Virus record (IMG/VR): IMGVR_UViG_3300027908_000001
Span: 23,167-87,166 of that record
Source of the DNA: a virus
Taxonomy: Duplodnaviria > Heunggongvirae > Uroviricota > Caudoviricetes
Length of the DNA stretch: 64,000 bases
Reading direction: 5' to 3' (one strand)
Shown: positions 4,653 to 35,542 of the stretch, piece after piece
How positions within the stretch are numbered: position 1 is the stretch's first letter
Layout: each line of letters starts with the position of its first letter
The notes under the pieces: generated by a model
The model's database searches: none
Seen by the model: only the letters and a program-made list of their open reading frames with translations
What the model was told of the DNA's origin: nothing
Translations under genes and position numbers: made by a program

Positions 4653-5026
4653 CGGGCCAGACGCCGCGCCGCAGCCGGGGTAGAGGCCAGCGTGGCCGCC
4701 TTGCCGACAAGTTCGCGCGCTTCCATGACCTTGGCCACCTGAGAGGCTGGAATCGCGACATAGAACCGGACGGCCTGTTCACCGTCCATCTTGTTCAACC
4801 GCTCCTTGGATTTGCGGATTGGAGCGGGCAACGCTACATTCGGGTCTGGCCAGTCGGCGATGAAGGATTTTATGAGTTCGGAGTCCGGCGCGGGCTCGTC
4901 CTCAAAGAGGTTTGGCATCACGAACGGTCCGACATCCGGCAAGATGGCCGTTGCGTGGTCATCCCGACCCACGATACGCCAACCCTCGGGCACGGCTACG
5001 TCAGGCTTGAGTAGTATTGGCGTCAT
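4631..5026 (-). CDS. hypothetical protein (~131 aa; track ORF 4631..5170 trimmed to internal Met MTPILLKP)
   Basis: ORF track; start chosen to minimise overlap with the 1126-aa gene ending at 5001; protein-like composition. Confidence 0.3.
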   Translation of the reverse strand: MTPILLKPDVAVPEGWRIVGRDDHATAILPDVGPFVMPNLFEDEPAPDSELIKSFIADWPDPNVALPAPIRKSKERLNKMDGEQAVRFYVAIPASQVAKVMEARELVGKAATLASTPAAARRLARQRKVTS

Positions 5027-8000
5027 TGACGACTTTCTCCATGTACTCCAACAACGGCCAGTTCCGTTGATGGAAATCCTCGCGCTTGTAGTTCGGGGCT
5101 GTAACCGCGGCAAATGTTTCGGCGAACCCTTCCTTGGAATTATCGAAGCTATACGATGAAATGGTCTCATGCCGAATGTCGCTCAGGCTTCTCGCTGGCT
5201 TTTCCCCACCGGCGATATATTCCCGCTGCTGGCGCATCGCAACCTCGACCTCGGCGTCGTAGTCCTCCTTATACGGGGCGTACAATCCGCGCCATTCCTG
5301 CGCGCGAGCGATATCCGTGCTCTCAATCCCATCTTCGACATGATGGCCGTATTCGTGGTGCAGTATTCCTTCCAGAGAATCTCCGGGCACAGAACATTCT
5401 CCCGGCTTCACGTTAAATGGCTCGTCGGCGTTCACCTTGGAAATTTTACCACCCCAAAGTTGCGGCGTGTCATACACCACAATTCCGTTGCCGTGCATGT
5501 ACTCGGCTTGCGGCGTGTTCAGGTCCATAGGCTTGGAATCCGGTCGAGCCTGACTGAGTGATACGACCACCGGCACCTTTCCGTACTTCTCAAAGATACG
5601 CTGCATCGACGGGTCATTCCAGAATTTGTTGGCCGCCTTCTGAACGTCGTCATGAAACTGCGGGGTCACCTTGTCGGCCTCCGCGCCTGCGAACGTCTTG
5701 GACCAGCGACGCAGCACTCGGGTAAAGGCGGCCTTCTCTCCCGCCGAGAATCGAAGCGCCACATCGTCGGAATCGCCGGGCTTGACCATGCCCATTTTCT
5801 TGCGCCAAAGCGATACGGCCAGCATATTGGCGCGCTGGTCGTTTAACTCCTGAACCGTCATATCCTTGAGCTTGTCCAGCTTGGCCGCCTCAAGCTTCTG
5901 AAAGTGCGAGACGAACGCCCGCGCCGATTCCACCGAACCGGTTGGCACCACCCCGCTGACCGCGAACTCCCCCTTGGCATCCCGGGGGTGCTGCGCTGGG
6001 TCGAACGCCTTGCCGATGTCTGCTTCCTCGTGACTCCATGTGCCGCGATTGAAGGCCGACTTAATTTGGTGTGGCTCGAATGCCAGCCAAACGCTGTGAG
6101 TAGGGCCTCCCATTTTCCCGCCAGTGTCTTTGATGCCATCGTAACCAAATCTCTGCAGAATTGGCAGCGCATCCTTCGGGACCTGCGTGGCCCAGAACGT
6201 CTCCTTGCCGGTAGCCTCCTCTTCCTTGATGTCGCGCACCCAAGCCTTGAGCGGATATTCCTTCGTCCAATGCGTGTCGCTGATGACATCCTCGCTCGGC
6301 ATGCGTTTGCGCTTGACGGCGCTCTCCAAGACATCCATCAAATCTTTCGGAATCGGCTTGCCGCCGTCGAGCGGGTTCTTGATGCTAAGGTATAATGGGA
6401 ACACCGCCGGTTGCGACCAGTTGTACGCGTTCCATTTCAGGCCGATGTGGTCGAGTAGCTGCTCAAATGGACTCTTGTTCTGCCGCAGTGCGAACGGGCC
6501 TTCGCCTTCATCGGCATACGCAATGTTGTACCCCATTGACTCCATGACCTTAAAAATGGAGAATAGGTCTTTGGTGCCGCCGCGATAGAATGCTTGCCGT
6601 GAATCCTTGTCATAGTCCTTATTGTCGGCCACGTACTTGTCCAAGTCGAAGTGGACCCCGTCCTCTCGATTCAGGAACTCCTTGGCTTTCGCTGCCTGCT
6701 CCGGCGTCAGCGTGATTTGCCAGAGCTTCTTGTTGAACTCTCCGTTCTTACCGGCAATCCTATATTGGTCGCCGTTCTCGTAGGTTTCTTTCACGCCCAT
6801 TTTACCGGTCGCGTAATTGGAGGCAATGGCCGGGTCTTCGGTGGCGTAGAACGCGCCTGCGGTGGATTTGCGCGGGTTGAATCCTTTGCCGTAAAGCTGC
6901 GCATTGTTCTGACCGGAGTAGACGACCTTTGGCTGGCCTTTTTCATCCACGACTTTTGAACCAGCGAACCATGCTTTGAATGCTGGAGAAGAAGTGCCGC
7001 TCGTGAACTCCCCACCGCCTGCTGAGCCCTTCGGTACGCGCGGGTGAACGGCTTCATCGAAGGATTTGCGCATGTCATCCATCGCCTTGGCTACTTCCGC
7101 CGGTTCCTTGGTCACGTCTTTGCCATTGACGTGGGTGATGTGGATTCGTGAATCGTCGAAGATGACGTAGTTGTGGGTCTGCCGGTCCTTGGCTTTGTCG
7201 TAGTATGCCTTCGCATCGGCCTCGTGAATGAACTGCAAGGTGCCTTTCATTGAGTCATCCACTTCCCAAACGCTCGTCTTCGGGTCTTTGCGAGGTTCGT
7301 GGACACGACTGCCTTGGTCGAGGTACTTCAAACCCGGTATGCCGTTGGCTTTAAGCTCTTCGGAGGCGGCCTTGGGCGACCCTAACAGGTCGGAGAGTTC
7401 CGTGTAAAAAGTTGCCCCAGTCTTGTCGGACAGGTCGTACTCTTGAAATCGTCTCGATAGCTCACTGGCCTTATGGAAATCCGTTTCCTTGTTCACCACG
7501 TCATCTAGCACGTCCTTCACCGCCGACCGGATGCTGTCGTTCTGTTGGCTGAGCGGCCTGTCGTCATCCAATAATTCACCGGGCCTGACTGCCAACTTGA
7601 CCTGATACATATTGCCATGGCCCTGCGCGATTGCGCCTTTATCCACCGCGGCCAGTAGCGTATCGGCCTTGGCCTTCAATGCCTGCACGCCTTCGAGGTT
7701 TACTTCGAGGAACTCATTCGGCTTGTAGACCATGTCCTTGATGGCCTGAAATGTTTTTGCATGACCGTTCTGGCAGGTGCTGCTGTTGCCTTCATACTCC
7801 TTGGTGTCGGTCCAGTAGGTAATGCGCGCACCGTCGCTGGCCGTCCATTCTTGGCAGGGCACCGCTTTGCGCTCTGCGCCCCATCCATGCATGTACTCCA
7901 CGTCGACCGGCCCGGTCCACTTCCGCTCCCGGGCGTTCTTCACTTCGGCATCAACCTTGGCCTGATACTCGGACGCCCGCTGGTTGGCAACATCGACGGT

Positions 8001-8381
8001 GTTGGTCGCCCATTGCTTCAACTGATTCAGCGCGCGGGTCTGCGATGACTTGTTTGTAGAATTTAGCGCCACCTTGAGCTTGTTGTAGGCTGCATCGGTA
8101 ATCCCAAGGTCGTGCGCGTCGGCTCCGTCCACTAGAATAACATCGCCCAGCTTCTTGTAGCTCTCCGCAGTGGCTTGTTGGTCGGCGAAGTAGAGGCCGT
8201 ACCCGTATGCCTGCGCGCCTTCGCCTTCGCCGATATGGGATGAGGAAAACTCCGGTACTAGGTTCGGTGTGCCATGATACGCAACGATGCCGCCAGCGCC
8301 GTCCGATTCCGAGAACCGGCCTTTGTCGTCGTGGTGGACGTTAAACTTGGCGATGCGCCGCAATGTTGCGATGATGTTCAT
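5001..8381 (-). CDS. polyvalent-type giant protein (1126 aa) with C-terminal HExxH zinc-metallopeptidase motif
   Basis: ATG at 8381; motifs FNVHHDDKGRF (N-term), HPRVPKGSAGGGEF, HPRDAKGEFAV; HHEYGHH (HExxH) encoded at 5340..5360; TPEFKAWF...VVYSG...FYAT and SIKNPLD...GYDGI...QIKSAFN modules paralogous to modules in the 1600-aa protein. Confidence 0.65.
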   Translation of the reverse strand: MNIIATLRRIAKFNVHHDDKGRFSESDGAGGIVAYHGTPNLVPEFSSSHIGEGEGAQAYGYGLYFADQQATAESYKKLGDVILVDGADAHDLGITDAAYNKLKVALNSTNKSSQTRALNQLKQWATNTVDVANQRASEYQAKVDAEVKNARERKWTGPVDVEYMHGWGAERKAVPCQEWTASDGARITYWTDTKEYEGNSSTCQNGHAKTFQAIKDMVYKPNEFLEVNLEGVQALKAKADTLLAAVDKGAIAQGHGNMYQVKLAVRPGELLDDDRPLSQQNDSIRSAVKDVLDDVVNKETDFHKASELSRRFQEYDLSDKTGATFYTELSDLLGSPKAASEELKANGIPGLKYLDQGSRVHEPRKDPKTSVWEVDDSMKGTLQFIHEADAKAYYDKAKDRQTHNYVIFDDSRIHITHVNGKDVTKEPAEVAKAMDDMRKSFDEAVHPRVPKGSAGGGEFTSGTSSPAFKAWFAGSKVVDEKGQPKVVYSGQNNAQLYGKGFNPRKSTAGAFYATEDPAIASNYATGKMGVKETYENGDQYRIAGKNGEFNKKLWQITLTPEQAAKAKEFLNREDGVHFDLDKYVADNKDYDKDSRQAFYRGGTKDLFSIFKVMESMGYNIAYADEGEGPFALRQNKSPFEQLLDHIGLKWNAYNWSQPAVFPLYLSIKNPLDGGKPIPKDLMDVLESAVKRKRMPSEDVISDTHWTKEYPLKAWVRDIKEEEATGKETFWATQVPKDALPILQRFGYDGIKDTGGKMGGPTHSVWLAFEPHQIKSAFNRGTWSHEEADIGKAFDPAQHPRDAKGEFAVSGVVPTGSVESARAFVSHFQKLEAAKLDKLKDMTVQELNDQRANMLAVSLWRKKMGMVKPGDSDDVALRFSAGEKAAFTRVLRRWSKTFAGAEADKVTPQFHDDVQKAANKFWNDPSMQRIFEKYGKVPVVVSLSQARPDSKPMDLNTPQAEYMHGNGIVVYDTPQLWGGKISKVNADEPFNVKPGECSVPGDSLEGILHHEYGHHVEDGIESTDIARAQEWRGLYAPYKEDYDAEVEVAMRQQREYIAGGEKPARSLSDIRHETISSYSFDNSKEGFAETFAAVTAPNYKREDFHQRNWPLLEYMEKVVNDANTTQA

Positions 8382-11300
8382 GCTTCCTTGGTCAGCGGTA
8401 TCTCCGTATGCACTCCGGTCGGAGTGGAGAAATCAAGATGTGAAATGGGGATGGCCTTGCCTGCGAACCGGTCGTCTCCGACATACTTGTCCACGAACTC
8501 TGGTTTCAGATATGCAATCGTCATGTGGCCGATGTACTGGCCATCGAAATCGCTCTTGTACGGCAACCGTTTCAGGCGCTTGTTCATCCGGGTCAGCGCG
8601 CCGCCGTAGACCGGGACGTACAGCACGCGGTACTCCTTGCCTTCGCGTTGCGGGAACGATGCAGTCCGGCCGCACACGATGGTGAATGGCTCAAACTTGT
8701 CGGTGATGGCGCGAACGTCGGCAGGGTCTTGCGTATCCAGTCCGTAGAGCACCGTGGCGTGGATGTCTGTCTCGCGTCCGAAGTCCGGTCCGTAACTGTC
8801 GTCCGCGGCTGGCTCCGTGTAAAGCTCGCTGTCCGGTATCGACTTCCCGTACTCCAGAAACGGCTTGGCATCCTCGGGCTCGACCATGGCCATGACGCAG
8901 GACGCCGATAGCTTGGTGGCGTCGCGCTTGGCGAGCGGGGTCGTCAAGTCGGTGTCCTTTCCGTGTAGCCTGTCCCAGAGATAATCCAACTCGAAATAGT
9001 CGTAGGCCGCGTGGTGGCCGCGTGAGCCGCGCCGTACCGCTTGTGCCGTGGTCTCGCCCGGCAGGCCGTGCGTGATTTGAAGCTGCTTGTTTGTCGGGTC
9101 GGGCTTCGTGAAGTCGTAGCCGCGTTTCTCGATGTCCAGCGCGTGCTCGATTTCGTGCCGTATGGTGGACAGTTGGCGCTCCTTGACCTTGCCCTGCCAT
9201 GGCTCTGGACGTGGCAGCCCGATGACGAATTGCAGCGGCTTATTGGTGGCCTTGTCGTACTGGACGGAAATCTCGCCGTGCCGCGTGGACGTATCATGCC
9301 AAACGAACTTCGTAGGAGTCTGGATGCCAAACTTCTTCACATAGAATGCAACCGCCTTAGCCGGGTCGGTTGTGCCGGTTTCCTCGGCCACCAACTTGTG
9401 AATCAATTCCGTGGTGCGCTCGTTAATTGGGTCGTTATCGAACTGCGTCTTGGTCATACCCGCGACCTTTATCGCCGCCGCCTGTACCTCTGGGTCTTGA
9501 AACTTCGGCGCAAACTCTCCCCTGTCATCCCTCGGATGCTCGTCCTCTTCCCATGCCTTGCTGATGTCCGGGCTGTCGGCGTGCGGTGTCGGGTTGAATA
9601 CGGACTTGATTTGCGAAGGGTGGAACGCTATCCACGTGTCGCCGGAGTGGCCCGGCTGCACTTCGTTGCGGCTCGTGTTCTGGTAATGGATGCCGTCGTA
9701 GCCCAGCTTCACCAAGATGTCTTTGGCTTTCGCGGTGTGACGGTCGAGCAAGCCGATGCCGTAATCCTTTGCGAACTCATCCCATGACTCCCAGTTCCCG
9801 TACTTACCGCCGCTGTTGTGGAATCCTTTGCCGGACTGCAACGCGTCCCAGACTTCGCCGTAGTGCTGAATCTTCGCCGGGTCGGTGCTGTTATACGTCA
9901 CGGCCTTGATGAACAGGTTCTTGTCCGCCGGGAACACGACTTTCTCCACCGCGCGCGTGATGGCGTTCTGGTCGAACCCGGTATCTTCCGTGCCGACGTT
10001 CAGCGGGTGCTTGATGCTCAAGTAAACCGGGTACACCGCGCCACCGGGGATGAGCATCCGCACGCTGTAGTCCGGACCGAGCCGGTCGCGCATGCCCCAT
10101 GTGCTGCCGTGTTTGTTCACGTCGTAGGGCTCGACGGCGATGTCGTGGAGGTCTTTGTCTTGCTTGACCAATACCGGCAGACCGTCGTACTTGATTTCTC
10201 CATCCTTGCCCCGGTACCACGATTCGTCCGGATGATATTCGTTGACATGGAAATCTTGGGCGTAGGCGTACTCGCCTGCCGTAAACGCGTTCGGGACAGA
10301 TGGGTCGACGGCGAAGTGGGAGCCGACCTGCGTGTTGAAAAGTGATACGTTGTCCGTCGCGTCGGTCTTGAACTCGCTGAATGCCGCCCGGCTGCCGTGA
10401 TATACAACCAAGGGTTTCCCGTCCGGCGTCACGACCTTCGAGTCCCCGAACCATTGCTTGAATTCGGGCGTATTGGTCAAGTCACGCTTGACCTGCTGGC
10501 CCGGTTCCAAACTGTCGGAGCTTGTTGATATGTCCCGACCTTTCGCATCACCGGCTGCAAACCTTCCCCGCGCATCATGGTTGGGATTCGCCTTCCCCAC
10601 ATCTTCCGCCTCGCCGGTATCCAGCACTTCACCGCCGTCATCGCTCTGGGCGGCTGAGGCTTTTTCTTCGGCCAAGGTGGGCCAAGGATTTCTCGCCAAG
10701 TCTGGGTCTGTAAAGACATTTGTTGGCGGCTCCGTCTCAACCTCTTCATCCGGGCCAAGCTCGTATACGGCCTCCACGGCACAACGACAGTTCTTGACTA
10801 GGAAGCTCTCACACTGGTATAAATGGTACTGTGAAGCTTGGAAATCATACACATGGGTGCTCACCGAAAAATTCCTAATCTTGCTGATTTTGGCAGGCGC
10901 TATGAAGCTGGCGAACCTACCACAAAACTCGCTCGCGCGGCGGGTGTCACCAAGAGAACAATGAACATCCGTCTCCGAAGCATTGGAGTGCGAATCCGCA
11001 CCCCCAGTGAAGCGCAGCTTTTGAAGAATGTCCAATGGGGTCCGCGGAAGCGCCAAAGGATTACCGCTGCTGCTCACGCCGCCAATACCGGCAGAAAGCG
11101 AAGACACATTGAACTTGTCCATATTGCCCAAGGCCGAGAGCGCAACCAAACCCATATCTCCTATATTGAGGCTCCGCTTGCTGCCAGATTGCGGGATGCT
11201 GGCCTTGCGGTTACGCAACAAAAGGCGATTGACAAGTACAATATTGACATCGCTATTGAAGAACCGCGCATCGCCATAGAAATCTGTGGCGGCCAAGGTG

Positions 11301-13180
11301 CCATTTGGAATCGTTACCGCACCTTTTACAGCAAGCGCCTCAAATATATCCTCGACAGCGGTTGGGCCGTTGTAATGGTCTATACCATAGCCGCCCGCCA
11401 TCCCCTCACTGTCGGTTGTGACCAATACATATTCGCCCTCATTGAGCGACTTCGCCTGTCTGTAGCCGGTAGGCGTGAGTACCATGTGATTCGCGGTACA
11501 GGAAAGCCTACGCCCATTAGCAAGATGTATTTCAACCGCAGGCCCGACATAGAATACCTTGGATGCTGCGACGAGGTCTGGAATAATCGCCTTATTGCTT
11601 GGGAGGATGCAATTCGGATGGGCCGGAAACGCGTCTTGGATGTCTGAGATTGCCCAAACTCTTCCGTCGAAGCCATCGCAAATCGGGCATTCGTCAGGAG
11701 TACCAAGCCAGCGAGCCAAGGAAATTCCGTCATTTTGGTATGATGCCAATGCAGCCCGCACTTGTCCTCGCGCAAATTCGGTGCGGGCAATTCTGTCAGA
11801 CTCATACCCGGTCAAATCCTGAAATCGGTCATTGATAATTCCGCCCATTTCCTTGGTGGGAATACCGTCGCTCAATCCATCCACGAGCAAGTCCTTTATC
11901 GAGCTATCAATTCTCGAAAGCGTGCTCTCCGAAAACTTCATCGCATACTCTTGCAGCGCATCTTCCAGCGGCTCTTTGACGGCGGAGGCCAGCGTGTCCT
12001 CGTCTATCTCCAATTCATCGGCGGCGATGGCGATGCCGTCGTCCACCCCGGCCGATTGCGTAATCATCAGCGCGTCGGCCAGTTCGGCAATCGCATCTTC
12101 ACCGGCATCCGGGAAAGCGTCCTGCAGGATGGCTTCGATGTCGAACTCGAATTCTTCCGGGTCGGGTAGGTCATCGTCGTCGGGGTCGTCTTTGGCTATG
12201 CGCGTGAAGGTTTTCCAGACGCGGGCCAGTAGGGACTTGGTGATATCTTTCTCTTTGGGGTCGAACGTGCCGCGGTTGCCGATGGCGGATTTGACCTGCT
12301 CGGGGTCGAACGCCGCGTAGGTGGTAGCGAATCCACTCTTGCTATCCTCATAGAATATTGCGCCGTCGTATCCCAATTTCTTCAGCACACCAACAAATTC
12401 AGCGCCATCCTTGTCATCGAAAAACTCCCAGTAGTTGGAGGCGTTCCTGTAATAGGATGGATTCAGGCCAGCGCCCTTCAACTCATCAAGCGTGTCCTCA
12501 TCAAATCCATTGCGTAAATCCAGCGGGGACTTGATGTTCATGTAAACCGGCATGACGTTGGTGCCGGGTTCTTCAGGGTTAATATATTCCTGAGCGAACT
12601 TCGGATTCTCGGTCGCGAATATGGCACTGCGCTGAGTCTCGAAGTTACCAAAAAATCCGTAGTTATTGATGCTCTTCCTGCCGACTTCAAATGTGCTGAA
12701 ATCCCCCTTGGTTGCATGGAACAGTTCCAGTGGCTTGCCGTCTTTCATGACCACGGATACCGGCGGCAGACTCGGGTCGCGCTTGGACGACCATGCGTGC
12801 GGGTCTTGCCAGTCGCCGAACCAAGCTTTGAACTCTGGTGTTGTAGTCTGCGAAGCGAACTCACCGCCGCCGGTCGCGCCTTTCGGATTCCGTGGATGCT
12901 TGGATTCATCCCACGCCTTGGCAATCCGGCCGAGTAACGACTTCTTGACCGGCACCGGCGGATGCTTGGCGAGCGCTGCCAGTACGCGACCGCGCCACTT
13001 CGCGAACACTGCGGCGATGGCGGCCTTGCCAGCCTTTAGTCCGGGCTCATCTTCAAAATGCGGGGCGTCCTTGGCCTTGGAGATGCACGTCCGGCATCCA
13101 CACGCCGTCAGCGAGATGCGACATTCATGGACGGCGTCGAATAGTTCTTGGGCTTCGGCTTTGGAGAGTCGAACTGGCAC
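8378..13180 (-). CDS. polyvalent-type giant protein (1600 aa) containing a MuF/SPP1-gp7-like head-morphogenesis domain interrupted by an intein
   Basis: Track ORF with GTG start at 13180; MuF-like block RIARTEFARGQ...WLGTPDECPICDGFDGRVWAISDIQDAFPAHPN|C...N|CRCAVEAV; HPRNPKGATGGGEF, NPNHDARGRFA, EHPRDDRGEFA motifs; two copies of the TPEFK(A/Q)WFGD...(Y/F)H(G/A)(S/T) and (S/N)IK(H/S)PL...GYDG(A/I)...Q(I/V)KS(A/V) modules. Confidence 0.7.
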   Translation of the reverse strand: MPVRLSKAEAQELFDAVHECRISLTACGCRTCISKAKDAPHFEDEPGLKAGKAAIAAVFAKWRGRVLAALAKHPPVPVKKSLLGRIAKAWDESKHPRNPKGATGGGEFASQTTTPEFKAWFGDWQDPHAWSSKRDPSLPPVSVVMKDGKPLELFHATKGDFSTFEVGRKSINNYGFFGNFETQRSAIFATENPKFAQEYINPEEPGTNVMPVYMNIKSPLDLRNGFDEDTLDELKGAGLNPSYYRNASNYWEFFDDKDGAEFVGVLKKLGYDGAIFYEDSKSGFATTYAAFDPEQVKSAIGNRGTFDPKEKDITKSLLARVWKTFTRIAKDDPDDDDLPDPEEFEFDIEAILQDAFPDAGEDAIAELADALMITQSAGVDDGIAIAADELEIDEDTLASAVKEPLEDALQEYAMKFSESTLSRIDSSIKDLLVDGLSDGIPTKEMGGIINDRFQDLTGYESDRIARTEFARGQVRAALASYQNDGISLARWLGTPDECPICDGFDGRVWAISDIQDAFPAHPNCILPSNKAIIPDLVAASKVFYVGPAVEIHLANGRRLSCTANHMVLTPTGYRQAKSLNEGEYVLVTTDSEGMAGGYGIDHYNGPTAVEDIFEALAVKGAVTIPNGTLAATDFYGDARFFNSDVNIVLVNRLLLRNRKASIPQSGSKRSLNIGDMGLVALSALGNMDKFNVSSLSAGIGGVSSSGNPLALPRTPLDILQKLRFTGGADSHSNASETDVHCSLGDTRRASEFCGRFASFIAPAKISKIRNFSVSTHVYDFQASQYHLYQCESFLVKNCRCAVEAVYELGPDEEVETEPPTNVFTDPDLARNPWPTLAEEKASAAQSDDGGEVLDTGEAEDVGKANPNHDARGRFAAGDAKGRDISTSSDSLEPGQQVKRDLTNTPEFKQWFGDSKVVTPDGKPLVVYHGSRAAFSEFKTDATDNVSLFNTQVGSHFAVDPSVPNAFTAGEYAYAQDFHVNEYHPDESWYRGKDGEIKYDGLPVLVKQDKDLHDIAVEPYDVNKHGSTWGMRDRLGPDYSVRMLIPGGAVYPVYLSIKHPLNVGTEDTGFDQNAITRAVEKVVFPADKNLFIKAVTYNSTDPAKIQHYGEVWDALQSGKGFHNSGGKYGNWESWDEFAKDYGIGLLDRHTAKAKDILVKLGYDGIHYQNTSRNEVQPGHSGDTWIAFHPSQIKSVFNPTPHADSPDISKAWEEDEHPRDDRGEFAPKFQDPEVQAAAIKVAGMTKTQFDNDPINERTTELIHKLVAEETGTTDPAKAVAFYVKKFGIQTPTKFVWHDTSTRHGEISVQYDKATNKPLQFVIGLPRPEPWQGKVKERQLSTIRHEIEHALDIEKRGYDFTKPDPTNKQLQITHGLPGETTAQAVRRGSRGHHAAYDYFELDYLWDRLHGKDTDLTTPLAKRDATKLSASCVMAMVEPEDAKPFLEYGKSIPDSELYTEPAADDSYGPDFGRETDIHATVLYGLDTQDPADVRAITDKFEPFTIVCGRTASFPQREGKEYRVLYVPVYGGALTRMNKRLKRLPYKSDFDGQYIGHMTIAYLKPEFVDKYVGDDRFAGKAIPISHLDFSTPTGVHTEIPLTKEA
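10790..11611 (-). other. Hint-domain intein (274 aa) inserted in the MuF HPNCRC motif
   Basis: N-extein ends ...FPAHPN, intein begins C(11611..11609)ILPSNK..., block-B-like GRRLSCTANHMVLT, C-terminal block HVYDFQASQYHLYQCESFLVKN(10792..10790) followed by extein Cys (10789..10787) RCAVEAV; removal regenerates HPNCRC, the canonical MuF motif. Confidence 0.5.
10838..11647 (+). CDS. HTH + DUF559/Vsr-like PD-(D/E)xK endonuclease-domain protein, encoded antisense inside the intein
   Basis: Track ORF (TTG at 10838; first ATG at 10853); HTH-like TTKLARAAGVTKRTMNIRLRSIGV; DUF559-like block YNIDIAIEEPRIAIEICGGQGAIWNRYRTFYSKRLKYILDSGWAVVMVY (cf. family pattern D-x-a...vvEiDGgqH...D..R...L...GW.VlRf). 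Confidence 0.45.
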   Translation: MEIIHMGAHRKIPNLADFGRRYEAGEPTTKLARAAGVTKRTMNIRLRSIGVRIRTPSEAQLLKNVQWGPRKRQRITAAAHAANTGRKRRHIELVHIAQGRERNQTHISYIEAPLAARLRDAGLAVTQQKAIDKYNIDIAIEEPRIAIEICGGQGAIWNRYRTFYSKRLKYILDSGWAVVMVYTIAARHPLTVGCDQYIFALIERLRLSVAGRREYHVIRGTGKPTPISKMYFNRRPDIEYLGCCDEVWNNRLIAWEDAIRMGRKRVLDV

Positions 13181-13194
13181 TTGTGGCCTGCACT

Positions 13195-13860
13195 TTACGG
13201 CTCTTTGTGGTAGGAATCAATCTGTTCTTGGTCGGATTTGGAAACGCCGTTCAGGGACGCTTGGAATCGAGCGTCAAGGTCGTCCTTCATCTTTTGCGGC
13301 AAAGTCGAATAAGAGTCCTCAGTGTGCCCCTGCCGCGCCAAGAACGATGTCCTTGCGTCGTTACTATCGATGGGGGCCACGCCGCCGCGCCGCTCGCTGC
13401 CATGACCGCCTGCATCTTTGGCCTTACCCAAAAACTCGCTGGCCGTCTTGCGCACCGGCGACGGTTTGTCAATGACCTCGGCCCACTTCGATTGCCAGTC
13501 ATCGAACGACTTACGGACCCGGCCTGATATGCCGAGACACTTGGTTGCGGTGCTGTGGAGCGTTGAACCCAACTGGAAACCCGCGTCGGATTTCAGGAAC
13601 TCGACGGCCTTGGATTCGGTAATGCCACTCTTAATGAGACTTGACACTACCAAATCATCGTAACGCGCGTCCCTGACGGCCTTGAAGAACCCTCCACCGG
13701 CTTCGGCACGTAGGCGCTTGGCGAGGTTCTGGGATTCAAAGTGACGGTGGACGGGCGTCGGCAGCCTAGGCGCGGGCGCACCCGACACCTTGGCGACCGG
13801 CTCGAACGTCGTCTTGAGGTTGTCAAAAGATTTGAATATGCCGCTGAATTTCCCGCTCAT
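13195..13860 (-). CDS. hypothetical virion-associated protein (221 aa) with KAKDAGGHGSERRG motif
   Basis: Track ORF, ATG at 13860, TAA at 13195..13197; shares KAKDAxGHGSxxRG motif with 14451..17699 and 19745..20458. Confidence 0.45.
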   Translation of the reverse strand: MSGKFSGIFKSFDNLKTTFEPVAKVSGAPAPRLPTPVHRHFESQNLAKRLRAEAGGGFFKAVRDARYDDLVVSSLIKSGITESKAVEFLKSDAGFQLGSTLHSTATKCLGISGRVRKSFDDWQSKWAEVIDKPSPVRKTASEFLGKAKDAGGHGSERRGGVAPIDSNDARTSFLARQGHTEDSYSTLPQKMKDDLDARFQASLNGVSKSDQEQIDSYHKEP

Positions 13861-14450: not shown

Positions 14451-17400
14451 TTAGACTTGGCCGCCGGATTTGACGATGTTCTGCATGCGACCGAGTAGGC
14501 CAGCCGGTTTTTGGCCTGACTTGGATACCGAATTATCCGGGCCGGTCTCGTGGGCATAATAAACCCCTTTGTCGGTAGAAACCATTGCCATGCCAAGCCT
14601 GTTATTTTCGTGGCCGATTACGGTTGCTGGTCCGGAGTAGCTATCATGGTCGTTTACACTCACTTTGGTGCCGACAGGATATTTATTCCGTAATGCGTCC
14701 AGAGCACTAGCGGCTCGCGCACGCCTTTCCGAGCCATGTCCACCCGCATCCTTGGCCTTCGCAAACGCCGCAATGACAGCCATCGGGTCCGAATCATCGA
14801 CCGGTCCGGTCGTCTCGTTGTCCAGATTATCCCCGGCTTCCCATCCGCAGGCCGAGCATACAAACACTCCGCCTACGCCGTTGTCCGTGTGGTCCATCGT
14901 GCCGCCGCAGTTCGGGCATACGACCTTGTCGGCTTGGCCGGTCGATACGTTGACCGCACCGGTGTTGCCGGAGAAGGTCTTGGCCAGTTCGAGCGCCTTC
15001 TCCACTTCGTGCGAGTCGTCGGCCTTTTCAACGAATGCTGAAATGGCATCGGAATCTGAAACTGTCTTACCGACGTGCTGCGCTATGCTACCGGCAATGC
15101 GTTTGGCGGAATCTTCGGAGTATCCCTTGGCCTGCATGTACTTCACCGCGTTGTCGAACCGTTCGCCGGTCCCGGCTTCACCTTTGAAGTGGCCGCCTTC
15201 CGTGTACTTCGATTCGGCGTCGTCGGACTTAACAACCACTGCATCCTTCGCCTTCGCCACGTGCGCCGCGCTCGTTAATTCCAGTGCCTTGCCGATGGCG
15301 ACTGGCTTGCCGCTCCGGCTCTTGTACAGGTCGAAATCGAAATCATCCGTGTCATCCCAGTCCGCGCTCTGGCCCAATTGCGCGCAGATGTCCTTGGCTT
15401 CGTAGGGGTCCATGGACTGGTCGGTAACGAGGCTGCTCATGCAGTCGTCCATGCTGGAGAATTCGCTGGCGTCGGCGTCCTTGCGAACCACGACCGGCTT
15501 TGACGCCTTGGTCAGGCCGACTAATGCGCCCATGAATTTCAGTGTCTTGCCGATGACCCGTTGCCCCGCCGTCTCGTGCGTGGGCGTGACGGCTTCCATT
15601 TCCTGCTTGGTGCGTTCCATAATTTCTTGATTCCTCTCCGCTTCGGTCGGGCGCTGGTCTACCTTGATGACAATTCTTTCGGATTGAAGTTTTTTGATTG
15701 CCCGGTTTATCGTGGCGATGTCTTTGGGCACGCTCATGCCGCTATCCCGTAGACCCTCAAGCGCCTTTATTTGTGCATCGGTTCCGGGTGCTCTATTTGC
15801 CGCCCAAGTAATGGCGGTGCCGACTGTCATACGGCTTTGCTTTTCTTCCTCGGATTCTTCCCCGCGCTTATTCGACCCGTGCCCAAGAGCATCCTTAGCC
15901 TTGCTCACGTCATCGTCATCCACGCTGTCCATATCGTAGGCTTCGTCGTTGCTCTCTCCGCAGGCCGGACAGACTGCCGCGCCGCCGCTGACCTTCGCGT
16001 CGGACATCGATGCGCCGCAGTTCTTGCACTTCCATGCCTTCTGGACCGGGGCAGTCGGAGCCGCCGGTTGCGTGGCCTTCCCACCTCCGCCGCCGGACGT
16101 ATCGCCCGTGTCGTCATCCCATTCTTCCATGTCGGAGGTCTTGCCGCAGGAGCCGCACTTCAGCGCGTCGCCTTGGAATTGCACTTTGTCCGGCATCTGG
16201 CCGCACGCCGGGCAGTTCGATATGGATTTACCAATTTGCACGTCACCCATGGTAACGCGGCTGCCATCGGACTTGTGAATCACGACTGCCACCACGATAC
16301 CATCGGCATTCGCCACCTCGGTTCGCATTGCCTTCTCCACGCTCTTGTCCGCGCCCGGCCAGCGACCAAGGTACTTTTTGTGAAGGGCAGCACATAAAGC
16401 GTTCGGGTCAGATACGCCACTCATCGGCGCTATTTCTTTGACGCAATAGTTGAAAAATCCTCCATCATCCTCGCGCTCTTGGGCCGTCTTGTGCTCGCCG
16501 TCGGCCTTCTTGATGCCGCGCTCGGCGTTATACATGGCCTCGCCCTTCTGGTGCGCGGTCTGGAATTCGTCGCTCTCCAGTTCGTTACTCGCCATGTGAT
16601 GCTGAATCGCCGCCTCTTTGATTGCCGGTGCCGCCCACGCCCGCTGAGCCTCCATAGCCTTGTAGTGGTCGTTGTTGACGCTTTGAACCCTGTCCAAGTA
16701 CCCGTTCCAATCCAGTTTGCCTGCCTCGGCGTCACGGTGGATACGGCCCATACTGTAATGCATGGCTGCTTCGGCTGAGTTGAAGTTGGCATGATGCGGG
16801 TCGTTGTTGGCGCGCGCTGCGAGCGCCGCCTGACCATAAGCCTTGCCTGCATCCTCGTTCGACCGGGCCGCTGCCGCATGCGCGCCGCGGTCGTCGAATC
16901 GTGGGCTGAGCGCTCGCGAGGTATCTTCGGTGGCAATGTTACCACGCGTAACCGCCAAAGCTGATAGCGCTTCGGACTTCTCGCCGAGCCGGTCGCCACG
17001 CTTATTGCTGCCATGGCCCTTGGCATCCTTCTCTTTAGAAACCTGCACGATGGCCTTGGCCAGCGCCGTGTCCTCATCCGTGACCCGGATTTTCAGCAGC
17101 TTCATGTTGTGCTTTTCCATCCGGTCGGCGCAGCTTGGGCAAATCTTCGCGATGATGGCTATCGGGACTCTCAGGACAATGCCTTCAGTAGCCCTAGCTT
17201 TGTTCACCGCGTCTTGAAGAAGAACAGCACGTGCGTGTTCATCCAAGTTCTTGAAAATATCGTCATCATCCCACAAGGCATCCTGACCGAGCTTGTCGCA
17301 AATGTCGGACGCTTCACCGTAATCGTGGCCGTTGTCCTGAATCATCGTGGTCATACATTGCTCGCGGTTCTCGAAGTCAGTGGGCTCGGCACCGTCGCTG

Positions 17401-17699: not shown

Positions 17700-17792
17700 T
17701 TACCGCAACAACAGAATTACCACGACGATGACCAGCAATAGACCGGCCCCACCGCCGACATAAAACGCACTCGCTAATAGAGGTGCAAACAT
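17700..17792 (-). CDS. possible 30-aa hydrophobic peptide MFAPLLASAFYVGGGAGLLLVIVVVILLLR (below track length cutoff)
   Basis: Manual translation; ATG 17792..17790, TAA 17702..17700 abutting start of 1082-aa gene; single TM-like segment. Confidence 0.2.
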   Translation of the reverse strand: MFAPLLASAFYVGGGAGLLLVIVVVILLLR

Positions 17793-17807: not shown

Positions 17808-18392
17808 TTACTTGTTGACCGATTCGTGAACCGCTACCGGCACCGGCGATTGTGCGGCGACCGGCCTGAAAACTATACCTAATATCAATCCGATAATAGT
17901 GCAGACAACGCCCACTCCAGCAATCATGTAAGCGACTGTTGCGGATATACCTTCTCCTCGCCCCTTGGTAAGCGTGCGAGAATCTTTCAGGTCGGCAATT
18001 GAGTCCAGTGAAGCCTTGTTGTTCTGCTCGATGCGCGCCGTAAGATTGGCCTCGACGGCATCGATTTTTTCTTCCATCGACTTATGCTGGACGGTATATT
18101 CATTGCGAGGCAAAAATGTGGATGTCTGGTCCGACAACTGCGCCCGAAACTCATTCACTGCATCGAACCTTTTTTCAGTAGCGGTATCGGCCTTGGCGAT
18201 GGCCTTTTCGGCGTTGGCGAAAGCCTGTTCGCTTAGTGATTTCTGTGCGGTCAACGCCAATTCCACGGATTTGGTGGATTGAACGGAGCGCTCTTCGTAT
18301 CGGCGGTCGCGTTCGTCCATAAGTCTTTCAAAGCCATCGATTCTGGCAATCAAAACCCCTGTGGACATTTCCGAATTTTCTTTCTCGCTCAT
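17808..18392 (-). CDS. coiled-coil protein with C-terminal transmembrane anchor (194 aa)
   Basis: Track ORF; long heptad-like region then hydrophobic tail VAYMIAGVGVVCTIIGLILGIVF. Confidence 0.4.
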   Translation of the reverse strand: MSEKENSEMSTGVLIARIDGFERLMDERDRRYEERSVQSTKSVELALTAQKSLSEQAFANAEKAIAKADTATEKRFDAVNEFRAQLSDQTSTFLPRNEYTVQHKSMEEKIDAVEANLTARIEQNNKASLDSIADLKDSRTLTKGRGEGISATVAYMIAGVGVVCTIIGLILGIVFRPVAAQSPVPVAVHESVNK

Positions 18393-18394
18393 TT

Positions 18395-18874
18395 CTAAGC
18401 CTTAACCTCGGAAGGACCGGGCAAAAGAACTGGACCATCTGCTTTGCGAATCTTGTGCGCAGCAAAAATTTCGTTGAGGTGCGCTACATCCAGCGGCTTC
18501 ATGAGTAGCCCGAAATATCCAACCTTGGCGGCCTTGTTCAGGCATTCGCTATCCGGGCTGTCGGCGATTAGTATCACCGGCACGCCAGCCAGTTTCACCT
18601 TTAGGAATCGAAGCGTCTCGACAATATCTATATCGGTCACGTTCAAGTCCAGAAACAACAGGCTTATTAGCCTATCCCGACCAGCCGATGTTTCAGTGTC
18701 AATTATTGTCCTGAACATCTCCCCCGTTGTGGCCGATAGGACGTTACAGCCATATTGATTCAAGACATTGGCTATCAGGACCAGCGTTTCTGTTTCGCTC
18801 TCGACCACTAGCACTCGCGGTGTCTTATTCATCGCAATAACGGCTTCATCCACGAATTCAAGCACTCGGTTCAT
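18395..18874 (-). CDS. standalone response-regulator receiver (REC/CheY-like) domain protein (~159 aa; track ORF 18395..19009 trimmed to Met MNRVLEF)
   Basis: PRVLVVESE...LNQYGCNVLSATTGEMF...ISLLFLDLNVTDIDIVETLRFLK...VPVILIADSPDSECLNKAAKVGYFGLLMKPL: acidic pocket, phospho-acceptor Asp in LFLDLN, conserved T/K positions; no output domain. Confidence 0.5.
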   Translation of the reverse strand: MNRVLEFVDEAVIAMNKTPRVLVVESETETLVLIANVLNQYGCNVLSATTGEMFRTIIDTETSAGRDRLISLLFLDLNVTDIDIVETLRFLKVKLAGVPVILIADSPDSECLNKAAKVGYFGLLMKPLDVAHLNEIFAAHKIRKADGPVLLPGPSEVKA

Positions 18875-18881
18875 AGAGGCG

Positions 18882-19250
18882 TCACCGATGGAGAAATCCT
18901 CCCGCCAATATCGCCAGTATTGCCGCCATGATAACACCTCCGGCCCATGCCGCAACGGCCCATCCTCCTGTAAAGAAAGTCCGTTGCCGTTTGAACTCTT
19001 CCACGTCATTGCTCATCGCAAACTGCTCGGCCAATGAGCGGCGCGCCTCGTGGTTCAGACGTATCACCACCTGAATGAACCAGTCCTGTTTCTGTCCGGC
19101 AATGTCCACGGCCTGAATCATGTACCGCTCGGATTCTGTGGCCGATGCCAGCAAGTGTTTGGGCACACGACAATCGAAGCGCGGCGTTTGCGTTATCTCC
19201 GGCAGCCGCGCGTCCAGTTCGTTCCGTTGGTCCTGTGTCAGCTCACCCAT
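18882..19250 (-). CDS. tail-anchored membrane protein (122 aa)
   Basis: Track ORF; C-terminal WAVAAWAGGVIMAAILAILAGGFL hydrophobic segment. Confidence 0.35.
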   Translation of the reverse strand: MGELTQDQRNELDARLPEITQTPRFDCRVPKHLLASATESERYMIQAVDIAGQKQDWFIQVVIRLNHEARRSLAEQFAMSNDVEEFKRQRTFFTGGWAVAAWAGGVIMAAILAILAGGFLHR

Positions 19251-19280: not shown

Positions 19281-19562
19281 TTAATGATGACTGGCCGTGA
19301 CTGGCACCAGTTCGGGCTTGTCCTCAAACGTTCGGCGTAAAAACTGCCACCATTTCGGACGGGTCCAACCTTTGGCCTTGGCCTTCTCGATAAGCTCGGC
19401 CCTTGCTGATGCCTCACTCACACATCCGGACACCTCCGCCAATTCCCAAATACCATCCCGGGAGTTCCACCATTGCAATCTGGCGCTATACGCCGTGAGC
19501 AATGGTGCCACCACCGCTGCCGGATGTAGTTTGGTTTTTACAGGATGCCGATGGTGTACCAT
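19281..19562 (-). CDS. hypothetical protein (93 aa)
   Basis: Track ORF, same strand, tight spacing. Confidence 0.25.
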   Translation of the reverse strand: MVHHRHPVKTKLHPAAVVAPLLTAYSARLQWWNSRDGIWELAEVSGCVSEASARAELIEKAKAKGWTRPKWWQFLRRTFEDKPELVPVTASHH

Positions 19563-19744
19563 TTTACTTGCCTTCGCCGCTCTGTCCGTGCGAAATCCCT
19601 AGATTAACCCCGCCCTGACCCGCATTGAAATGCAGACCGATACCGCAAATCCAGCAGAGCGCCACGACGACGATTACCGCGAGGATGATTTGTACGATTC
19701 TGTTCTGGAATATGTTATGCCACATAATGCTCGATACCTTTCGT

Positions 19745-20458
19745 TTACCGCTTTTTTCGACCGTGACCGAACTCGAACCCGCGGTTCAGCGCCTTGCCGA
19801 TGTCGTCGGAGGCATTATCGGAAATTGTGCTCATGGCATACTGGCGCTCGCCCGGTGCCATCTTGGACCATTGCTCTTGGGCGTCAGCTTGGGCCATCTT
19901 GGAATCCACCATGCGGCCTGCCTTGGCGTGGGCCTTGGCTTCCTGCATTTTGGATACGTAGGCATCGGACCGCGCCGACTTGCTGCCCGGCACTTTCTGG
20001 TTGCCGTGGAACCAGCCTTTGCCAGCCTTGCCGATGCGCTCACCGATGGTGCCTAGCATGCGGAGGTTCGGTGAGAATGTTTTTCCAATCTTTCCACCGG
20101 CATTGCGAACATCGGCGTTGGCCTGCGCCGCTTCCTTGCTGGCGAATACCTGACCGGTAGAACCATCCTCGTGCTTTACCGTATGACGTTCGTCGTCAGG
20201 GTCGTCGGTGAGCTTTGATGGACTCCATGGGCCTTTCTCGCCGCGCGCTTCCTTGGCTGCGTCATCCTGTCGGCTGTCATAGTGCCAGTGGTCGGAGCCG
20301 CCGGACTCGGACGATGCTGTCATGCCTCGTTTTTCACTCCCGTGTCCCTTGGCATCCTTCGCCTTCGCTACGGTAGATTGGTGGACCTGCTGCAATACAG
20401 AGAGTTTTTGAAAGATGGTTGCCATAGGTAGTGCGCTCGTCGTTGTGTGCTCTACCAT
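19745..20458 (-). CDS. basic, low-complexity protein (237 aa) with AKAKDAKGHGSEKRG motif
   Basis: Track ORF; shares KAKDAxGHGSxxRG motif with two other window proteins; Lys/Ala/Gly-rich. Confidence 0.4.
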   Translation of the reverse strand: MVEHTTTSALPMATIFQKLSVLQQVHQSTVAKAKDAKGHGSEKRGMTASSESGGSDHWHYDSRQDDAAKEARGEKGPWSPSKLTDDPDDERHTVKHEDGSTGQVFASKEAAQANADVRNAGGKIGKTFSPNLRMLGTIGERIGKAGKGWFHGNQKVPGSKSARSDAYVSKMQEAKAHAKAGRMVDSKMAQADAQEQWSKMAPGERQYAMSTISDNASDDIGKALNRGFEFGHGRKKR

Positions 20459-23041: not shown

Positions 23042-23938
23042 TCATGCCGTGATTTCTTCGTAAGCGCCAACCAGAACCTTGCTGTCCCAGAACATCCGTC
23101 CGCCGTTGGCAATGAGTTCGGGCTTCCAGTTACCCAAAATCGGTGAAATATGGGTTTCTCGGAATCGCTTCATATCTTCCGCCGCCTGCCTGCGCCCCTC
23201 TCGCGTCAATCCGCCTTCTTTCCTGTGCATGAGCGCATACTGCGTCGGCACTCCGTAATGGTCGAATCGGAAGCGTGGGTCGGTGACGAAAAAATTCGAT
23301 ATGCATCCCATGAGCCGCATCCCGAGGCGGGCGTCCTGAGCCCGGTAATCACTGAGTTCATGGTTGTGGCCACCTAACTCGCGTAACATTTTTCTCGGGG
23401 CCGCCCATATCGCCCCGTAAGCCAGCAACGGTGTCTTGGGCATCCGATACACTCCGGGCTCTGCAGGAAAATAGTCCAAGCGAGGGTCACGATGGAGCTT
23501 CACGCCGGTCTGTTCGTCGTAGAAATCGATTTGGCCCCACAACACTCTCTGCGGTGTTTCGGTAATGCGCTGCTCAATCACCAACTCGACCATGCCGGTG
23601 TCAGGAACTCCGTCTGCGTCCAGATGAATCAGGATGCTGCCAATCGCTTCCTTGAAAAGCACGTTCTCGGCCCAGCCCGGACCTCCGCCTTCGAGTGTCC
23701 TTGGTGTCAATCGACGGAACACGCTCGCTGAGAACGGCCAGTCATGCCCGAGCAATTCTTTCTTCAAAACCTCGACTGTGTCGTCCGTTGATGCATCGTC
23801 GACTACTAGGACTTCAAGCGGAGGGATGGTCTGGCAGGCGAGGGCCTCAAGTAGCTTGCCATCTCGCCAGTGTTCGGCGTCGTTAAAACTTGGTATGATT
23901 ACACTGACTGTCACGCCTTCCCCCGCATCTTGCCCCAT
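23042..23938 (-). CDS. glycosyltransferase family 2
   Basis: VSVIIPSFNDAE...LEALACQTIPPLEVLVVDDASTDDT: classic GT2 N-terminal signature. Confidence 0.6.
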   Translation of the reverse strand: MGQDAGEGVTVSVIIPSFNDAEHWRDGKLLEALACQTIPPLEVLVVDDASTDDTVEVLKKELLGHDWPFSASVFRRLTPRTLEGGGPGWAENVLFKEAIGSILIHLDADGVPDTGMVELVIEQRITETPQRVLWGQIDFYDEQTGVKLHRDPRLDYFPAEPGVYRMPKTPLLAYGAIWAAPRKMLRELGGHNHELSDYRAQDARLGMRLMGCISNFFVTDPRFRFDHYGVPTQYALMHRKEGGLTREGRRQAAEDMKRFRETHISPILGNWKPELIANGGRMFWDSKVLVGAYEEITA

Positions 23939-31445: not shown

Positions 31446-32537
31446 CTACTTCTCTGACGGCAACGTGAACAGCAGGTTGGCTCCTGTACCCTCGACATTC
31501 GGGCGCTTGCCGTCCCACTTGGCAATCGTTTCCTGCGCAATCTGCAATTTCCGCCACGTGATGATTTCTGCCGTGATGGACTTCGCTAGGAGGTCGTTGG
31601 CCTTGGCTTCACCCTCGGCGCGGGCGACCTGTGACTGGGCCTCGCCTTCTGCGGTAGCGACTTTCTTCTTGGCCTCTGCCGAAGCTTGGCGCAATTCGTT
31701 CTCAACGCGGATGGCGTCCTGTGTCGCCTTAATCTTCGCGTTGATGGCGTCCACGACGTTCTGCGGCAGGCGCATCGCTCCGATGAAACCCAATTGCTCG
31801 ATATGGATTCCGAATTCTTCCACCTGCGCATTCACGCGCTTGGTGACTTCCTTGAGCAAGGCTTCTTTTCCAGCGCCGTAAATTTCTTCCACACCCATCG
31901 TTTGCGCGACTTCGTTGAACGCGTCGCGCGCCACGTTACGCAGAAAACCGTGCGTGAAGGCATCGATACTGTCGCTGCGGAACTTGACGTAGAACGCCGG
32001 TACTTTGTCTTGGTAGAGTTGGTAGCTCAGCGAAATGTCACCGGCGATTACCAGACCTTCTTTCGAGTTGAAGGTTATCTCCTCATTCTTGGGGCTGCCC
32101 TCGTCCTTACTGGCGCACCACGATGCGGTTTGAACGAAGCAAGGCCATTCATCAATGTTTTCCGTGAACGGGTTGTACCAGACCATGCCGGTGACTAACG
32201 GGTAATCTTCCACACCGCGATTCTTGCCGTACAGGTCGATGCGGATACCGGCATAACCGGGGCGGACTCGCGTGCAGCCGGTGCCTAGCAAGGTCAAGCC
32301 GACAAGCAGTACGACCACCGGGCCAATTGAGCTTGGCGGGAATAGTGCGCGACAGCCTTTCTTGATTACGTGTCCCAAAAATACGAGCCACGCAATCAGC
32401 GCGACAGTGATAATTGTCAAGCCGATGCCGACCTGCACATCGCTCGGGGCGCTGACCATGTCGACGGCTTTTCCGGCGAAAAATACACTGAGAAATATGG
32501 CGGCTACAAACAGACACAACTTCAACGCGAACTTCAT
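31446..32537 (-). CDS. SPFH/band-7 (HflK/C-like) membrane protein
   Basis: N-terminal TM then typical SPFH core (...VIAGDISLSYQ...) and Ala/Glu-rich coiled coil ...AEAKKKVATAEGEAQSQVARAEGEAKANDLLAKS. Confidence 0.55.
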   Translation of the reverse strand: MKFALKLCLFVAAIFLSVFFAGKAVDMVSAPSDVQVGIGLTIITVALIAWLVFLGHVIKKGCRALFPPSSIGPVVVLLVGLTLLGTGCTRVRPGYAGIRIDLYGKNRGVEDYPLVTGMVWYNPFTENIDEWPCFVQTASWCASKDEGSPKNEEITFNSKEGLVIAGDISLSYQLYQDKVPAFYVKFRSDSIDAFTHGFLRNVARDAFNEVAQTMGVEEIYGAGKEALLKEVTKRVNAQVEEFGIHIEQLGFIGAMRLPQNVVDAINAKIKATQDAIRVENELRQASAEAKKKVATAEGEAQSQVARAEGEAKANDLLAKSITAEIITWRKLQIAQETIAKWDGKRPNVEGTGANLLFTLPSEK

Positions 32538-35261: not shown

Positions 35262-35542
35262 GACTTGCCAACAGCCTCAATCCAGAACCCATCTTCCTTG
35301 TGACCGAACCGGTCCGTGAGCGTACCAGCCCGGCACCCCTTCACAATGAACGGCTGACCGGAAATGTAAATCGTGGCGTTGACGGCCATCCCAGCTTTCA
35401 CAAAGAACGTTGCCGTGAAATCGTTCTTGCCTTTCCGGTTCAACTTGGCCGCTACATCCAGACAGGAGGCCGCGATTAAGACCTTGTCCGCGGTTTGGAC
35501 GGTTGGCGCGTTGCTTCCGAGGATGATGCCGGATTCGCTCAT
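35258..35542 (-). CDS. hypothetical protein (94 aa)
   Basis: Track ORF; ATGA overlaps both neighbours. Confidence 0.3.
   Translation of the reverse strand: MSESGIILGSNAPTVQTADKVLIAASCLDVAAKLNRKGKNDFTATFFVKAGMAVNATIYISGQPFIVKGCRAGTLTDRFGHKEDGFWIEAVGKS

Follow-up and report, generated by a model that had tools for sequence, protein, structure and literature searches.

The receiver gene and its active site

The locus described here lies in a 64-kb stretch of tailed-phage DNA (Caudoviricetes; IMG/VR record IMGVR_UViG_3300027908_000001, positions 23,167 to 87,166), which was analyzed whole and is referred to as the window. On its minus strand, the gene at 18395..18874 encodes a response-regulator receiver domain protein (REC), and the gene directly upstream (18882..19250) encodes a small membrane protein, hereafter the partner. 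Judging from gene order in related phages, partner and REC are a conserved two-gene module and not a lone decoy. The first-pass annotation, made from the letters alone, had read 18395..18874 as a CheY-like receiver without an output domain, and both points held. The Pfam model Response_reg (PF00072) matched residues 21-136 (E=2.4e-11; 44.2 bits against a cutoff of 30.2), and the product is a single-domain protein of 159 amino acids (aa). An AlphaFold2 (AF2) model run with a 30-sequence family alignment reached a predicted local distance difference test score (pLDDT) of 86 and placed five beta-alpha units after an N-terminal helix (residues 2-15), with the (beta-alpha)5 core at residues 20-139 and a family-specific C-terminal motif at His140. 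Foldseek agreed, matching the model in the PDB to Sln1-R1, GacS-D1, Spo0F and CheY at probability 1.0, with target-normalized TM-scores of 0.8-0.89 to Spo0F and Sln1; these proteins also gave the best matches by sequence.

The active site is only partly canonical. Spo0F residues D10, D11, D54, T82 and K104 align with E25, S26, D76, A104 and K126 of REC. The phospho-acceptor D76, within the sequence LFLDLN at the end of beta3, and K126-P127 at the end of beta5 are canonical, as had been proposed, but the threonine motif listed along with them is absent, with A104 in place of the conserved Thr/Ser at the end of beta4. The acidic pocket of the same annotation also proved incomplete: the pair E25-S26 replaces the DD pair, E25 being an acceptable acidic residue at DD1 and S26 occupying the metal-binding DD2 position. 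Recognized receivers that lack at least one of the five catalytic residues are termed pseudo-receivers, and DD2, which binds the metal directly, is the position most often lost in them (PMC12632262). Because the DD2 and T residues are both lost, the REC of the window is, on its sequence, a pseudo-receiver by this definition. It is like other pseudo-receivers in being recognized by profile and in its loss at DD2, and differs from them in that it stands alone without an output domain and is an isolated, recent degenerate in a canonical family. With single-domain regulators of the CheY, Spo0F and DivK types, which act via protein-protein contacts, it has in common the (beta-alpha)5 fold, the lack of an output domain, and the Asp and Lys-Pro residues. 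Unlike them, it has Ser at DD2, Ala in place of Thr, an extra N-terminal helix and the C-terminal His motif, and it is phage-encoded, has no cognate kinase, and is paired with a tail-anchored membrane protein.

A phage receiver family and its tail-anchored partner

A word-indexed search of 5.8 billion proteins with REC returned only REC itself; its family was found by an exhaustive search of cluster representatives. The members are stand-alone proteins of 140-170 aa that align from residue 1 to about residue 143 of the window REC (e.g., P0002). They share an N-terminal amphipathic helix, "GC" at beta2, the motifs FLDLKLP..G, PVVIVTG and GY.GL.EKPL, and a C-terminal EIF..H(R/K)I. Residues were counted in the 44 cluster representatives that matched the family hidden Markov model (HMM) end to end. 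The canonical E/D-D-D-T/S-K quintet is present in 41 of these, the exceptions being P0007 (Cys at DD2), P0101 (phospho-acceptor Asp replaced by Asn), and the window REC. By site, DD2 is Asp in 42 members, the phospho-acceptor Asp is kept in 43, T or S is found in 43, and K126-P127 is invariant. Conservation of the pocket among homologues thus stands for the relatives but not for the window protein itself, the sole representative with two quintet substitutions. Two further changes in the beta3-alpha3 loop, G84I and P80T, are found in no other member. The window REC nevertheless scored 151 bits against the family HMM, where members score at least 150, and it still has the family residue at 12 of the 14 sites with conservation of 90% or more, including D76, K126, P127, Y120 and H140. 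Because these positions are kept and the losses are concentrated at the phosphorylation site, the sequence argues for a specific loss of the phospho-switch and not for general decay.

Variants of the family architecture were also seen. In the related REC P0026, a transmembrane (TM) segment and linker precede the receiver in cis and the partner gene is absent upstream, which is consistent with membrane tethering as the purpose of the pairing. P0039 (279 aa) carries a family-type N-helix REC with an HKI motif fused to a C-terminal region that is PAS-like by eye, and so, on its sequence, the family REC would also exist as a two-domain protein. High-scoring "relatives" of 240-280 aa were tandem REC-REC proteins and were set aside as uninformative.

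A homologue of the partner immediately precedes the REC gene in each of the 11 independent loci where the sequence before it could be read, namely the window and ten others (L003/L004, L005, L006, L007, L008/L009, L010, L015 (IMG/VR), L027/L028, L029 and L030/L031). These homologues are 99-124 aa long, and the partner stop and REC start mostly overlap by 4 nucleotides (nt; ATGA), an arrangement in which the two genes are probably translationally coupled, partner then REC. Partner-to-partner blastp matches in a small local database ranged from 1e-3 (the weakest, window against L006) to 4e-24, and when the three newest sequences were kept out of a partner HMM, that HMM matched them at E=4e-27 to 4e-31. 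Eight partner members were retrieved from the 5.8-billion-protein index. Since the module proteins are only 16-47% identical across loci, their adjacency has been preserved across deep divergence. The idea that REC couples to the membrane proteins on both sides of it is therefore strongly supported for the upstream partner by this synteny, but not for the 194-aa protein encoded downstream, which is not conserved with the module.

P23, Q53 and R70 are invariant in the partner alignments and D56 is nearly so; a role for the partner as an HPt-like phosphodonor was ruled out, as the alignments contain no invariant His. Every partner has a C-terminal hydrophobic segment, placed by hydropathy at residues 98-116 of the window copy, and this one strong segment bears out the earlier description of 18882..19250 as a tail-anchored membrane protein. 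The AF2 model (pLDDT 77) has a short N-terminal helix, a conserved extended segment, a long helix (39-94) and the TM segment (~97-120). Searches of Pfam, PHROGs (E<=0.01), PDB sequences and PDB folds returned no relative of the partner.

Genomic setting and analogous pairs in other phages

The whole gene cluster around REC is on the minus strand, and the partner, REC and 194-aa open reading frames (ORFs) are all present at the coordinates given in Table 1. The phage setting of the receiver gene was supported by a portal gene (Pfam E=8e-26), a weak TerL match, two giant ART-PolyVal proteins and many ORFans in the window. The portal is only about 29% identical to Streptomyces phage portals, and among cultured phages (INPHARED) the region had zero nucleotide matches by blastn, with tblastn of REC and the 194-aa protein likewise empty. 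An identical REC protein occurs on six contigs from different samples, one of them a 197-kb ENA contig (ERZ27255970 k141_5149174). The gene calls of the cluster match those on public contigs bearing this protein, and the 30-aa ORF is called as a gene on two of the public contigs (L001 and L002) as well. GC content is about 50-51% in the REC gene, the 194-aa gene and the 30-aa ORF, 57% in the partner gene, and 56% on average in the window; the contrast between the partner and the other half of the cluster may reflect different histories of the two halves. A promoter and terminator scan gave counts not above those in shuffled sequence, and so no sign of an autonomous moron transcription unit.

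Table 1 Genes of the receiver cluster, listed in order of transcription
Feature	Position	Strand	Remarks
53-aa single-TM ORF	19564..19725	-	First in transcription order
93-aa ORF	19281..19562	-	Second in transcription order
Tail-anchored partner, 122 aa	18882..19250	-	Stop codon 7 nt before REC start
REC, 159 aa, stand-alone pseudo-receiver (by sequence)	18395..18874	-	Pfam PF00072, AF2, Foldseek, family alignment
194-aa protein with C-terminal TM	17808..18392	-	Start 2 nt after REC stop
30-aa single-TM ORF	17700..17792	-	Directly downstream of 194-aa gene, spacing 15 nt; hydropathy

The 194-aa protein has a charged, probably helical N-terminal part, a TM segment at residues 157-175 (hydropathy) and a short tail. 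It had been described as a coiled-coil protein with a C-terminal TM; the TM segment was recovered, but the coiled coil was not, as residues 21-143 are poor in Pro and Gly but show weak heptad periodicity. No homologue was found next to REC in the 10 other family loci, where the downstream genes differ in every case, and there was no match to this protein in Pfam, PHROG, PDB or the INPHARED cultured phages. Despite their like architecture, the 194-aa protein and the partner showed no homology by hhalign (probability 0.4%).

No kinase accompanies REC. A six-frame phmmer search of the 64 kb with 50 large REC-containing probe proteins matched the REC ORF only; among the probes checked against Pfam were hybrid kinases carrying HisKA, HATPase_c and Hpt domains. 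Pfam searches of the 81 other ORFs of the window returned 27 families, none of them a two-component or kinase family. With no histidine kinase or HPt nearby, the locus does not hold a complete phage-encoded two-component system, and because there is no kinase in 64 kb, any phosphoryl donor used by the family must come from the host or be a small molecule. Loci in IMG/VR and GTDB were found with a 7-sequence sub-alignment of the REC family; the 55 bacterial loci of the GTDB scan contained no partner and no family-level REC. Verrucomicrobiae and Chthoniobacterales metagenome-assembled genomes (MAGs) supplied the nearest cellular RECs (90-98 bits with the family profile), and these Verrucomicrobiota sequences may be a weak hint to the host or to the origin of the gene.

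Stand-alone "CheY-like" genes are known from Alteromonas phages V22 (gp30) and A5 (gp11), where they were classed as class II auxiliary metabolic genes (AMGs) in a shared "host recognition module" (PMC7289586, PMC10579305). Like the window gene, they encode stand-alone RECs (~147-149 aa) preceded by a single-pass helical membrane protein of 122-125 aa; they lie in the late region after the tail fibers. Unlike it, they lack the N-terminal helix and HRI motif, have the canonical quintet, and follow an upstream protein that is N-terminally anchored. In A5 (OP481051, L011 10251-12365), this anchored helical protein is gp10, and gp11 is followed by an Rz-like spanin (gp12; phrog_4297 at 2.9e-8), a 2-TM protein (gp13) and an annotated endolysin (gp14). 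The order in V22 is C92 amidase, ORF29, REC. The window module has no neighbors of the kind that adjoin A5 gp11 (spanin and endolysin) or V22 gp30 (amidase).

A second arrangement was found in Alteromonas phages PB15 (KX982260, L013 3205-5146) and XX1924 (L014 1260-3237), in which REC, annotated as a "response regulator," comes after a 4-TM protein and a helical protein of 101 aa with a tail anchor (phrog_937 "hemolysin," 1.8e-16). The layout of the pair is that of the window, with a C-terminal-TM helical protein directly upstream of REC and the genes overlapping or adjacent, but here it is flanked by a recognized endolysin and holin, whereas the window module is not, and the partners are without sequence homology (hhalign probability 0.9%). 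In PB15, REC is followed by the endolysin (phrog_894, 1.6e-31) and the holin (phrog_3427, 2.6e-40; Pfam GTA_holin_3TM, 3e-16). The start codon of the PB15 REC is apparently mis-annotated, as beta1 lies upstream of the annotated start. In a third case (L016, IMG/VR), directly downstream of an N-helix REC come a helical protein of 103 aa with a tail anchor and then a 2-TM protein. A single family uniting the partner, the 194-aa protein, the 101-aa PB15/XX1924 protein and the 103-aa L016 protein was rejected (hhalign probability ~1% or less). Because the partners are non-homologous and the RECs belong to other subfamilies, phages seem to have evolved the pairing of a small single-pass helical membrane protein with a stand-alone REC on several occasions. 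The "Receiver domain" named in the N4 pinholin (PMC12642591) has nothing to do with these proteins.

These cassettes bring the small lysis-associated membrane proteins of other phages into view. XhlA, for example, is helical in its N-terminal part and carries a TM segment at the C-terminus, and phrog_937 presumably corresponds to it. In the Bacillus prophage PBSX, XhlA is a membrane protein acting with the holin XhlB (PMC5589764). As a small phage protein with a lysis role at the cytoplasmic membrane, it is a precedent for a holin-associated small protein. Neither the partner nor the 194-aa protein matched the XhlA Pfam model or phrog_937.

The family modules lie in late-gene regions amid small TM proteins, lipoproteins and secreted proteins. 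The gene preceding the module has a tail-fiber PHROG match in L010 (2.5e-14) and a weak one in L007 (E=0.0057), and in the related variant L016 REC also follows a gene with a weak tail-fiber match (3.9e-5). PHROG and Pfam scans of the family-locus neighbors for endolysin, holin and spanin returned only these tail-fiber matches and one weak holin-like match (L015, E=0.0024). In the window, the only lysis-family signal was a weak phrog_873 match inside the 1126-aa polyvalent protein (E=0.0035). A signal-peptide protein of 123-128 aa is encoded just downstream of the module in both L003 (10626-10997) and L010 (10456-10842) (blastp 4e-16), loci that otherwise differ. A 96- and 64-aa gene pair flanking the L003 module looked like a duplication, but the DNA is only 31% identical and the equal sizes are coincidental.

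Several other features of the window were recorded. The motif (A/S)K(A/E)KDAxGHGSx(K/R)R occurs five times on the minus strand (13396-13419, 14730-14753, 15873-15896, 17007-17030 and 20336-20359), once in a 221-aa protein, three times in a 1082-aa zinc-ribbon protein, and once in a 237-aa protein; the genes for these proteins lie on either side of the REC cluster. The motif may be a site of protease cleavage or a signal that targets head-internal or ejected proteins to the capsid. The polyvalent proteins of 1600 aa (8378-13180) and 1126 aa (5001-8381), also on the minus strand, contain ART-PolyVal ADP-ribosyltransferase domains, and the larger has in addition an SPP1-gp7-like minor-head region, a weak intein/Hint match, and a 2'-5' RNA-ligase-like C-terminus. 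Between about 23000 and 43000 (minus strand) there are unusually many glycosyltransferase families (GT2, GT11, GT25, Glyco_trans_1_2 and RXYLT1_C; e.g., 41749-42729, 35539-36618 and 23042-23938), together with several S-adenosylmethionine (SAM)/FkbM methyltransferases and a weak sulfotransferase match, which suggests phage-encoded glycan synthesis or modification. The minus-strand gene at 31446-32537 encodes an SPFH/Band_7 stomatin-like protein (Pfam E=4e-26). V22 likewise encodes stomatin-like and CheY-like proteins, both listed as class II AMGs (PMC7289586, PMC10579305), and the co-occurrence in window and V22 may be coincidence. One further ORF matched the RyR domain (E=1.4e-11), and another weakly matched the Acb2/Tad1 hairpin (E=7.7e-4), a fold that, if real, would be that of an anti-CBASS/anti-Thoeris sponge.

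Possible function of the module

We propose that REC binds the partner's cytoplasmic helix, perhaps with its own N-terminal helix, and that this would produce a split, membrane-tethered receiver at the inner membrane face; that the two form a complex at the membrane is probable. In family members with an intact quintet, the complex would be switched by a host donor, whether a histidine kinase, an HPt protein or acetyl phosphate. In the window phage this switch would have degenerated (Ser26, Ala104, Ile84), and the pseudo-receiver presumably binds the partner constitutively or is regulated in another way. The output would be a late, envelope-directed event, with lysis timing as the leading candidate and superinfection exclusion next to it. 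It is the gene neighborhoods in PB15 and A5 that make lysis timing the best-supported guess; as no recognizable lysis gene was found in the window or near five family modules, we rate lysis as the output of the module low, and on this analysis it is a doubtful assignment. Taken as a whole, a membrane-tethered module of REC and partner with a late envelope function, whose phospho-switch has been lost in this phage, has in our estimate somewhat less than an even chance of being correct.

A number of points weigh against this interpretation. We infer the contact between REC and partner, as we do the formation of a complex, the membrane localization of REC, the phosphodonor and the output. A Mantel test of partner against REC distance matrices speaks for the pairing, but the correlation (r=0.34, exact p=0.044) makes for a weak mirror-tree signal. 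The degenerate active site could reflect relaxed selection. The Alteromonas phages offer analogy only: their partners had no homology to the window partner (partner HMM, hhalign), and their RECs scored only ~30 bits against the family profile (A5 gp11 32.7 bits; members at least 150). The window module sits among head-internal and polyvalent genes and not beside tail fibers. Recognizable endolysin, holin and spanin genes were not found among the ORFs of the 64-kb window by Pfam and PHROG, and precomputed Pfam annotations contained no lysis gene within about 10 kb of the L003, L004, L007, L008 and L010 modules.

An alternative is that the module interferes with host two-component signaling, in which case a membrane-concentrated REC would bind host kinases, canonical members would act as a phosphate sink, and the window copy would be a non-phosphorylatable, dominant-negative decoy blocking a stress or defense regulon. 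Tethering would put REC beside membrane kinases, and the absence of a phage kinase means that any phospho-chemistry needs host donors. The quintet is conserved in 41 of 44 members, and the Verrucomicrobiota MAGs that carry the closest cellular RECs suggest capture from a host. The phosphate sink raised in the first-pass annotation is, however, unlikely for the window copy, in which the metal-binding Asp and the Thr are both lost; without DD2 and T it cannot be an efficient sink, though it may act as a decoy that binds kinases. The strict tie to a dedicated partner with its own motifs (P23, Q53, D56, R70) points instead to a phage-internal target. Interference of this kind is in our view unlikely.

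Two further readings concern this phage alone. REC could bridge the partner and the 194-aa protein, perhaps with the 30-aa TM peptide, as a three-protein sensing or scaffolding unit at the membrane. The tight gene spacing (7, 2 and 15 nt) and the tail anchors of both flanking proteins fit such a unit, as does the lower GC content (~0.50) common to REC, the 194-aa gene and the 30-aa ORF, with the partner at 0.57; a stand-alone REC also has an unrelated tail-anchored helical protein as its immediate neighbor in L016 (on the downstream side) and in PB15/XX1924 (on the upstream side). The 194-aa homologue is nevertheless not beside REC in the 10 other loci, and the protein shows no homology to the partner or to the PB15 or L016 proteins and has no homologue in cultured phages, which leaves the three-protein unit quite improbable. 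Alternatively, REC may be a decaying passenger that has no function left in this phage and has lost catalytic residues for that reason. The two catalytic substitutions together with G84I and P80T, all unique within the family, and a GC content below that of surrounding genes would agree with decay, but the ORF is intact and identical on the six contigs, 12 of 14 highly conserved family positions are kept, and the fold is predicted with confidence by AF2. The partner is also intact and tightly spaced, and the substitutions are grouped at the active site instead of being spread along the protein, so that decay is very unlikely. The membrane-tethered module of REC and partner is the reading we retain.

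Neither the REC fold nor the presence of CheY-like genes in phages is new. In the searched literature, the N-helix REC family, its obligate tail-anchored partner, and the recurring analogous pairs, two of them in PHROG-supported lysis cassettes, appear to be undescribed. A broader and speculative extension, which we consider unlikely, is that split membrane-anchored receivers are an unrecognized class in tailed phages, with at least three to four non-homologous versions, which would read the phosphorylation or energy state of the host and gate a membrane event late in infection, for example holin triggering or lysis inhibition; the window copy would then be a locked form independent of phosphorylation. 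Stand-alone CheY-like genes of phages have so far been listed as "auxiliary metabolic genes" without a proposed mechanism. The hypothesis opened here is that membrane-tethered phage receivers may link host phospho-signaling to an event at the envelope late in infection. As PB15, A5 and V22 are available in culture, the hypothesis is open to genetic test, and the window copy would serve as a natural "phospho-dead" control.

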